Assembly: GCA_000004695.1 (NCBI GenBank)
Contig: CM000154.2
Span: 4,032,001-4,096,000, forward strand
DNA from: Dictyostelium discoideum
Lineage: Eukaryota
DNA length: 64,000 bases
Direction of reading: 5' to 3'
A program made the translations under genes and the position numbers. Below, one piece after another: positions 26,161-28,793 of this stretch. Each line of letters starts with the position of its first letter. Positions within the stretch are counted from its first letter, which is position 1. The notes below the pieces were generated by a model. The model was not told where the DNA came from. It searched no databases and saw nothing but the letters and a program-made list of their open reading frames with translations.

Positions 26161-28793
26161 ATGGATATTAATTTAATAAAGCAATACATAAATTCATCAT
26201 TACCAAATGATAAAGAATCATTAATTCAATACTATGGTCAATTAAAACAAATTTTAAATGCATTAAGTGATAAAGAACAACAACAACTTTTAAATAATAA
26301 TGGAAAAATTAGTGAACAACAACAACTTTCAATTGAAAATAACTATAAAGTAATTGGTTCAATTGAAGAGAAAATGAAATCAATTGAACATCTTTTTAAT
26401 AATTTAGATGTATCTGATTCTAATAATAATAATAGCACATCACCTGTATTTATATCACTTGATAATCAAAACACAGTAAATAATAATAATAATAATAATA
26501 ATAATAATAATAATAATAATAATAACAACAACAATAATAATAATAATAGTTTAGCACCCACAGTTATATTAGATAACAATGATAATAAAAAAACTGCTGA
26601 AATTATCTTACCTGATCATCACAATAACACACCACAACAACAACCAGAACAACAAGTACAACAACAACAAGTACAACAACAACAACAAGTGCAACAACAA
26701 CAACAGCAACCAGAACAACAACAACAACATCTTACAGAAGAGCAAATTCAAAAACAACAACAATCACAAGCATCAATTCAACAAGCAATCGCTAATATGG
26801 GCGAGAAAAAAAGAGTAATGTTATTTATTGTGTTATAAAAAAAAAATAAAAGAAAAAATAATATATTAATATAAAATCAATATTTATTTTTTAGAGTTCA
26901 TCACGTCATTCAGGTCCACCAGAAATTCCACCAGAAGAGATTAAATTTGATGTTAAAACAGATTTATTAGGTGGTGGTGCATATGGTAAAGTTTATAAAG
27001 CAACTTGTAGAGGTAAAAAGGTTGCTGTAAAAGTACCAAAGAAACAAACTTTAAGTGAATCTGAATTAAAATCTTTTAAAAATGAAGTTGAAATTATGAA
27101 GTATGTAATTAATTATTATTATTTAATCACTCAATCAATAAATCAATAACCTCACATTTCCTACATATCATTATTATTATTATTATTATTATTATTATTA
27201 TTATTATTATTATTATTATTATTATTATTATTATTATTATTATTATTATTATTATTATTATTATTATTATTATTATATACTAACTATATTAATAAATAAA
27301 AATAATAATAGGCAAATTTTTCATCCAAATGTAGTTTTATGTTTAGGTGCGTGTACCAAACCAGGTAAAGTTATGATTGTATCAGAATTAATGCAAACTG
27401 ATTTAGAAAAGTTAATTCATTCATCAGAGGTTGAACCACCACCATTATATGAAAGAATGAAAATGTGTCTTGATGCTGCATTAGGTATTAATTGGCTACA
27501 TGGTATTTGTAATATTATACATAGAGATTTAAAATTAGCAAATTTAATGATTAGTAAGTGTTTAAAAAAAAAAAAAAAAAAAAATTATTATTTTCATTTG
27601 ATTTTATTTTGACACCTTTTATTATTAGGTAAAGATAAAACAGTTAAAATTGGAGATTTTGGATTTAGTCAAGTTATTAAAACAGGTACAACATTATCAG
27701 ATCAAAAAGGACCAAAAGGTACAGCACTTTATATGGCACCAGAAGTAATGATGAAACATGAATTCAATGAAAAAGCAGATGTATATAGTTTTGGTTTAAT
27801 TCTTTATGAAATGGCAACATGTGAAGAATTATTCCCAGAGTATTCAGAGATCGATCCATTCTATGACGCAATTTGTAATAAAAAATTAAGACCACCAATA
27901 CCAGATAGTTTCCCAAAATCTTTAAAAACTTTAATACAAAAATGTTGGGATCATGATCCAAATAAGAGACCATCTTTCAATGAAGTCACTCAAAGAATGA
28001 ATGAAGTATTAACTGATACTGCCATCTCTGGTTTAGATGCTGCTATGTTTTGGAAATATAATTTCATTAAACCTGAATCAGAATCTGTACCTTGGAATGA
28101 ATTTGTTTATAAATTATCAAGTGTTGTTAATCTACCAACTCAAGTTCTATCACCATTAGCTCAATTATTTGGTATGTTTTAGAAAAAAAAAAAAAAAAAA
28201 AAAAAAAAAAAAAAAAAAAATCAAAACCAAAACCAAAACCAAAACCAAAACCAATTATTTTAAATTCTTTTATTAACATATATATATATTTTTTTCAAAT
28301 TTTAGTATCACAATCATATGAAGAAGAAATTGGAGGTGTAGTTACAATGGAAAGATTTGACCTAATGAATAAATGGTTTGGTAACTTTTTTAATTCAAAG
28401 TATGGACCAGCAATTTTATATGAAATGATTGAACTTTTAAAAAAGAGATGGTTCCATTTCGATATTAGTAGAGATATTTCAGAGAAAAGATTAAGAGGTA
28501 GACCAGAAAATACTTTCTTACTTAGATTATCAGCAAATGATCCAATCAAAACACCATTTACGATTTCAAAAACAAAAGGTTCAAAACCAACTCATAAACG
28601 TGTTTCTCGTGAAGATGTTCAAATAAATGAAATTAAACAATTTCCAATGGGTTATAAATTTACTGTGCCACTCGACGGTAATGAATTGGTTTTTGGTTCC
28701 ATCACTCAAATGGTTGAAGAATTACATAGAATTGGTAATCTATCAATTCCATGTCCAATCACTGAAATTAAAGTACCTTATTTAACTGATTAA
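26161..28793 (+). CDS. Dual-specificity (TKL-type) protein kinase with a C-terminal SH2 domain, the shk-type architecture. Five exons, approximately 26161..26814, 26895..27100, 27312..27553, 27629..28171 and 28306..28793.
   Basis: Exon 1 is N/Q-rich. Exon 2 carries GGGAYGKVYKA...KVAVKV (GxGxxG, VAIK-like). Exon 3 carries HPNVVLCLGACT...HRDLKLANLMI, the catalytic loop. Exon 4 carries KIGDFGFS...YMAPEV...DVYSFGLILYEMAT. Exon 5 carries WFHFDISRDISEKRLRGRPENTFLLRLSANDPIKTPFTISKTKGSKPTHKRV, the SH2 core (FLVRxS-like, with H in beta-D). Donors lie at 26815, 27101, 27554 and 28172. Phases were checked nt by nt. Confidence 0.85.
27170..27286. repeat. (TTA)n microsatellite of about 38 units inside intron 2 of the SH2-kinase gene.
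   Basis: A perfect repeat lies between the donor at 27101 and the acceptor at 27311. Confidence 0.9.

Follow-up and report, generated by a model that had tools for sequence, protein, structure and literature searches.

Background

The kinome paper of Dictyostelium discoideum (Goldberg et al. 2006, PMC1420674) counted 12 SH2 proteins in Dictyostelium, including the kinases Shk1-5 of the TKL group, and Sugden et al. (2010) gave 13 SH2 proteins, five of which are predicted dual-specificity kinases. As far as it is described there, Shk1 is dual-specific and needs its SH2 domain for localization at the plasma membrane (Moniakis et al. 2001, as cited in PMC1420674). The fifth member appears in the supplementary table of the kinome paper as DDB0230104 (Shk5, shkE; TKL, Dicty4, Shk), with the motifs VAVK, HRDLKLAN and DFG. 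Here we report the analysis of a 64,000-nucleotide (nt) stretch of D. discoideum DNA (assembly GCA_000004695.1, contig CM000154.2, positions 4,032,001 to 4,096,000), hereafter the window, in which positions 26161-28793 had been interpreted from the letters alone, in what we call the sequence-only reading, as an SH2-domain kinase gene of the shk type with four introns. Our results indicate, with a probability of about 0.96, that this region is one five-exon gene of D. discoideum encoding an SH2-domain kinase and that the gene is shkE (Shk5, DDB0230104).

Structure and identity of the gene

The three forward frames were translated, the sequence was inspected from 25500 to 29500, and the exons were joined at the junctions proposed in the sequence-only reading. 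The exon and intron limits were exactly where that reading had placed them, and the reading frame closes: the spliced coding sequence of 2133 nt runs from the ATG at 26161 to the TAA at 28791-28793 and encodes 710 amino acids (aa). The four introns (80, 211, 75 and 134 nt), all with GT..AG ends, have a G+C content of 9-13% as compared with 25-31% in the exons, in a window of about 22% G+C throughout. The sequences most closely related to the window all come from Dictyostelium.

All exons and introns lie on the forward (+) strand. Exon 1 (26161-26814; aa 1-218) contains the start codon, the helical, putative ShkE_N region and a disordered N/Q-rich linker, and its beginning, MD[IL]NLIK, is kept in the orthologues. 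Intron 1 (26815-26894; phase 0) has the same position and phase in an Acytostelium protein (P0007). The kinase domain starts in exon 2 (26895-27100; aa 219-286 plus 2 nt), which carries GGGAYG, VAVK and Glu282 of helix alphaC. Intron 2 (27101-27311; phase 2), which follows EVEIM, is found at the same position and phase in the ShkE of Dictyostelium purpureum, in a Cavenderia fasciculata paralogue (P0026) and in Acanthamoeba (P0071); because it is common to these three, it probably goes back to an early stage of the family, as judged from the compared sequences. A near-perfect (TAT)37 microsatellite (27166-27276) is located within this intron. Exon 3 (27312-27553; aa 287-367) covers parts of the N-lobe and C-lobe of the kinase, with the catalytic loop HRDLKLAN, and intron 3 (27554-27628; phase 1) was also found in Dictyostelium firmibasis and in a second D. 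discoideum isolate. Exon 4 (27629-28171; aa 368-548) encodes DFG, the activation loop, APE, the remainder of the kinase and the first half of an EF-hand-like domain. It is followed by intron 4 (28172-28305; phase 1), which has an in-frame TAG at 28180-28182 and, within 28183-28254, a run of A38 and then (AAAACC)6. Exon 5 (28306-28793; aa 549-710 and the stop codon) encodes the second EF-hand-like loop with its helices (to 28448), the SH2 domain (about 28449-28760) and a short tail. Introns 2 and 4 differ in length between the window and the other isolate labelled D. discoideum (211 vs 258 nt and 134 vs 93 nt, respectively).

The spliced translation is identical to the Shk5/shkE entry DDB0230104 (PMC1420674 supplement), which begins MDINLIKQYINSSL, over the first ~400 residues, a stretch that spans junctions 1, 2 and 3 and includes the same VAVK, HRDLKLAN and DFG motifs; no difference was detectable over the ~400 aa compared. 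Orthologues bearing a precomputed Pfam ShkE_N domain (PF26756) are present in D. purpureum (665 aa, 65% identity, full length), D. firmibasis (714 aa), C. fasciculata, Acytostelium subglobosum and Tieghemostelium lacteum. A rough neighbor-joining tree placed the query and its orthologues in a dictyostelid clade, apart from a ShkA-like clade and a ShkD-like clade, both labelled according to the published tail peptides of ShkA and ShkD. The closest solved kinase relatives are CTR1 (E value of 1.4e-48), TAK1, TNNI3K and B-Raf, all of which are TKL kinases. Because of the match with the published entry, the orthologues with ShkE_N, the placement in the tree and the TKL relatives, the gene is to be regarded as already known, shkE having been catalogued with the Dictyostelium kinome in 2006; it is one of the five SH2-domain kinases and belongs to the TKL group, family Dicty4, subfamily SHK. 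The proposal of a shk-type SH2 kinase was thus borne out by the identity with shkE over ~400 aa, by the domains and by the tree. In T. lacteum, the protein carrying ShkE_N is a 1241-aa model (L003 3001-6912) in which a carboxyltransferase (Carboxyl_trans/ACCA) is joined to the ShkE orthologue via one intron; most likely, this is a gene-model fusion of two neighboring genes.

Some points weigh against the assignment or against what might be drawn from it. The stretch compared with the published shkE ends at about residue 400, before junction 4 and the last 310 residues, and the predicted splicing of intron 4 in the window strain rests on comparative evidence. When the exact 710-aa sequence was looked up in the protein collection, no identical annotated protein was among the matches. 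A literature search on ShkE found no experiment on ShkE itself, and the presumed activity, substrates and SH2 ligands of ShkE are extrapolated from ShkA.

Kinase, EF-hand-like and SH2 domains

The kinase catalytic domain (26961-27996, + strand; aa 241-490), which is of TKL type and is broken by introns 2 and 3, matched the Pfam profile PK_Tyr_Ser-Thr with an E value of 4e-58. Its motifs (GGGAYG 244-249, VAVK 261-264, HRDLKLAN 357-364, DFG 377-379 and APE 404-406) and those of the SH2 domain (WFHFDISR 597-604, FLLRLS 619-624 and HKRV 645-648) included every one named in the sequence-only reading, each in its expected place. In an alignment of 62 homologues, K264, E282 and D377 show no variation and D359 and N364 almost none. 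With all catalytic residues present, the kinase domain is catalytically intact as judged from its sequence. The catalytic loop of tyrosine kinases has the consensus HRDLAARN or HRDLRAAN. A conventional tyrosine kinase of the TK group was considered and rejected: the loop of ShkE is HRDLKLAN, the closest solved kinases are TKL kinases, and the class given in the kinome paper is TKL (PMC1420674).

Structures were predicted with AlphaFold for aa 490-710 with a 64-sequence alignment (predicted local distance difference test score, pLDDT, 93; predicted template modeling score, pTM, 0.89) and for the full length (pLDDT 81, pTM 0.71); in the latter, the kinase, EF-hand-like and SH2 domains are each predicted with confidence. 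The EF-hand-like helical domain (28033-28448, + strand; aa 503-596) lies between the kinase and the SH2 domain and is broken by intron 4. In the model it consists of two helix-loop-helix units with their loops paired by short strands. The Pfam profile Cbl_N2 (the EF-hand-like domain of Cbl) matched aa 503-574 weakly (E value of 0.046); among the 62 family members it matched 10, with a best E value of 5.6e-6, and EF-hand_12 matched four more. The ordinary Pfam SH2 profile matched all 62 members and the Cbl_N3 profile one. A Foldseek search against the PDB did not reproduce a Cbl match and ranked SOCS SH2 domains first; therefore, the resemblance to Cbl is kept as tentative.

The SH2 profile (PF00017) scored 24.0 bits in the full protein and 26.4 bits in exon 5 alone, above the curated cut-off of 21 bits; the lack of an SH2 match, which the sequence-only reading had named as an outcome that would speak against it, was therefore not encountered. 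That the score is barely over the cut-off (24 vs 21 bits), and that the match covers only the first 56 of the 77 profile positions, might be taken to mean that the SH2 domain is degenerate and does not read phosphotyrosine, being Spt6-like, for example, or purely structural, and a related alternative is that the kinase is a pseudokinase. However, the modeled SH2 fold superimposed on the SH2 domain of Grb10 with a root-mean-square deviation of 1.3 A over 91 residues, and in the phosphotyrosine pocket R622 (betaB5) and R647 are invariant and H645 is nearly invariant in the 62 sequences, with R604 also present. The pocket is thus complete in sequence, and the presence of R604, R622, H645 and R647 suggests that the domain would bind phosphotyrosine peptides. 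As for a pseudokinase, the catalytic residues are all intact, and Shk5 was scored as having an active kinase domain in the kinome paper (PMC1420674). We consider this alternative, in either form, very improbable.

The N-terminal 215 residues had been described as N/Q-rich with a CAA repeat. The composition (21% N and 20% Q in the first 218 aa) and the repeat (CAA-type, 26621-26729, downstream of an (AAT)23 tract at 26479-26548) were confirmed, but the first part of this region is not of low complexity. In the full-length model, aa 1-82 (26161-26406) form confident helices (residues 3-10, 18-45 and 52-82; pLDDT 80-95), and aa 84-225 have a pLDDT below 50, as expected of a disordered linker. Because aa 1-40 and 62-82 are conserved among the orthologues and aa 1-82 are confidently helical, the N-terminus is best described as having two parts, a conserved domain and then an N/Q-rich linker. 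Residues 1-82 also align with the N-termini of the orthologues bearing the precomputed PF26756, the model itself being outside the Pfam copy used on the query. The long N-terminal helices might mediate oligomerization. In the other isolate labelled D. discoideum (GCA_054859355.1; L001 5424-6141), insertions and deletions have made the Q-rich part of exon 1 different, and the annotation splits the gene into proteins of 178 and 539 aa; either the linker is really disrupted or the split is an artefact of assembly or annotation.

Intron positions and the joining of kinase and SH2 domain

The sequence-only reading had also held that SH2 domains outside Metazoa are essentially confined to dictyostelids, and that the SH2 domain of this gene occupies its own exon, suggestive of domain shuffling. 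Neither view was upheld. The homologue search recovered the architecture of kinase followed by SH2 from Acanthamoeba, Balamuthia, Entamoeba and Pelomyxa, and also among predicted proteins of eukaryote collections and in many environmental sequences, and published counts of SH2 proteins are 48 for Acanthamoeba and 18 for Physarum. Exon 5 starts 48 residues before the SH2 domain, where the second EF-hand-like loop begins; in the model of aa 490-710 this point corresponds to fragment residue 59/60, where the pLDDT dips to 63.

To compare intron positions, the annotated proteins were mapped exactly onto their loci, and each intron was expressed as query residue and phase, intron 4 being Q548 phase 1. 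An intron at this site was found only in the ShkE orthologue group. In C. fasciculata (LARLF|LSND) and A. subglobosum (LSNLF|VLSP) it lies at exactly the same alignment position, in phase 1 in both, and it has been lost in D. purpureum and T. lacteum. In the ShkA-like gene, introns lie at Q595/2 and at further sites; the ShkD-like gene is interrupted at Q588/0; another paralogue is without introns in the kinase-SH2 region; and the Acanthamoeba homologue has introns at Q537/0, Q599/2 and Q646/1. If the SH2 exon had been joined to a kinase gene by exon shuffling, intron 4 would be the scar of that event, and it does precede the SH2 domain and is old in the ShkE lineage, being shared at the same position and phase by D. 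discoideum, D. firmibasis, C. fasciculata and A. subglobosum. However, its site is not a domain boundary, the introns of the paralogues and of Acanthamoeba are at other positions and phases, and the spread of the kinase-SH2 architecture over Amoebozoa makes this architecture older than the ShkE lineage. Exon shuffling is thus unsupported, because no intron at the kinase/SH2 boundary is common to these genes, and we hold it to be highly improbable.

The joining of exons 4 and 5 was examined by comparison with relatives. The junction LAQLF|VSQSYEEE is identical in two independent annotations, those of the D. discoideum-labelled isolate (P0001) and of D. firmibasis (P0121). In D. purpureum, a single uninterrupted open reading frame (ORF) extends from QIFHPN over the kinase and SH2 domains up to the stop codon, and in T. 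lacteum there is no intron at the site of intron 4. Compared with the other isolate, the window shows nine synonymous and one non-synonymous codon differences among the 161 codons of exon 5, and five synonymous differences and none that are non-synonymous in exon 4. Both domains are present in 62/62 aligned homologues, several of them from transcriptome assemblies. A mechanical ORF that extends to the TAG at 28182 and another that opens at 28347 would allow two genes, one for a kinase that stops at 28180-28182 and a small one for an SH2 protein that starts from the ATG at 28347; transcripts ending at this TAG were the other outcome that the sequence-only reading had named as speaking against it. 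However, the shared junctions, the uninterrupted ORFs of the relatives, the synonymous bias of the exons and the two-domain homologues make this alternative, as far as sequences can tell, very unlikely and the least probable of those considered, and moreover intron 4 has GT..AG ends, 13% G+C, a poly(A) tract and a 41-nt length change between isolates, and the ATG would fall inside the EF-hand-like domain.

A Peptidase_M16 gene (21731-25481, +) lies upstream of shkE and a glycosyl hydrolase family 18 gene (28970-30304, -) downstream. D. firmibasis and the second D. discoideum isolate have these neighbors in the same order, and the M16 neighbor is also present in D. purpureum. Positions 1-2000 of the window have 36% G+C, as compared with about 13-30% in the remaining window.

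A conserved tail tyrosine and a proposed mechanism

Tyr707 (28779-28781) is located three residues from the C-terminus, downstream of a nearly invariant Cys698-Pro699 (28752-28757). It lies in the peptide VPyLTD. One alignment has a tyrosine at this position in all its rows, the other in 48 of its 62. Among 129 homologues with the SH2 hallmark, 119 have a tyrosine in the last 12 residues as compared with 36 +/- 5 after shuffling, and 95 have the motif [PG]Y as compared with 4.8 +/- 2.2, although these sequences are related and not independent. The homologous tail residues are phosphorylated in vivo in ShkA (Tyr-525, AQLSGyIN) and ShkD (Tyr-739, FTQETFNPyDPYTN); the authors of that study draw no relation between the tail phosphotyrosines and the SH2 domain (PMC8584165). 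In the model, Tyr707 is 17 residues beyond the end of the last SH2 helix (aa 690). STAT proteins have a similar spacing between SH2 domain and tyrosine, which favors reciprocal dimerization.

ShkE is a cytosolic protein of 710 residues, arranged as a putative ShkE_N (aa 1-82), linker (84-225), TKL kinase (about 230-500), EF-hand-like domain (503-596), SH2 domain (597-700) and a short tail. The structure of the gene, its domains, their fold and the identity with the published gene are shown by the present data, and for the mechanism we infer the following scheme. By analogy with Shk1/ShkA, docking through the SH2 domain would bring the kinase to tyrosine-phosphorylated partners, and the docked kinase, if dual-specific like Shk1, the one member for which this is reported, would phosphorylate serine/threonine and tyrosine residues nearby. 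Once phosphorylated, the tail tyrosine may bind to an SH2 domain from within the family, and this may regulate or dimerize the kinase. As a tentative proposal, one that is possible and by no means probable, the Shk kinases including ShkE might be switched by their own tails, phosphorylation of Tyr707 leading either to reciprocal SH2-phosphotyrosine dimerization or to Src-like self-inhibition.

Comparison with known systems

As a gene finding, nothing here is new, since SH2 kinases outside Metazoa have their textbook case in the Shk family. What the analysis contributes is mostly negative: it is that a four-intron Dictyostelium gene was rebuilt exactly from its sequence alone, that two tempting evolutionary inferences (the rarity of SH2 and exon shuffling) were removed, and that a conserved, phosphorylatable tail tyrosine beside an EF-hand-like and SH2 unit offers a testable hypothesis on the regulation of a little-studied kinase family.

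ShkE resembles Shk1/ShkA, the only member whose function has been studied, in having the kinase followed by a C-terminal SH2 domain and a conserved tail tyrosine, but the two fall into separate paralogue clades, and the ShkA-like homologues recovered (the P0055 cluster, 514-525 aa) gave no match to Pfam ShkE_N, and their introns lie at other positions. The function of ShkA should therefore not be carried over to ShkE uncritically. Compared with the metazoan cytoplasmic SH2 tyrosine kinases (Src, Abl, Csk and Fes), the domain order is reversed, the SH2 domain of ShkE coming after the kinase; ShkE further differs from them in its EF-hand-like domain between kinase and SH2, its HRDLKLAN loop and its TKL relatives. 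The tyrosine-kinase-binding (TKB) domain of Cbl is composed of a four-helix bundle, an EF-hand and an SH2 domain, of which only the EF-hand-like and SH2 part is resembled in ShkE; the Pfam scan of ShkE gave no RING finger and no match to the Cbl_N four-helix bundle, so that ShkE is not counted as having a Cbl TKB domain. Our literature search found no paper linking the Shk tail tyrosine, or the EF-hand-like and SH2 unit, to the logic of STAT and Cbl. If both the tail switch and the Cbl-like unit of EF-hand and SH2 proved true, the Shk proteins would be an amoebozoan kinase family with the regulatory logic of STAT and Cbl.
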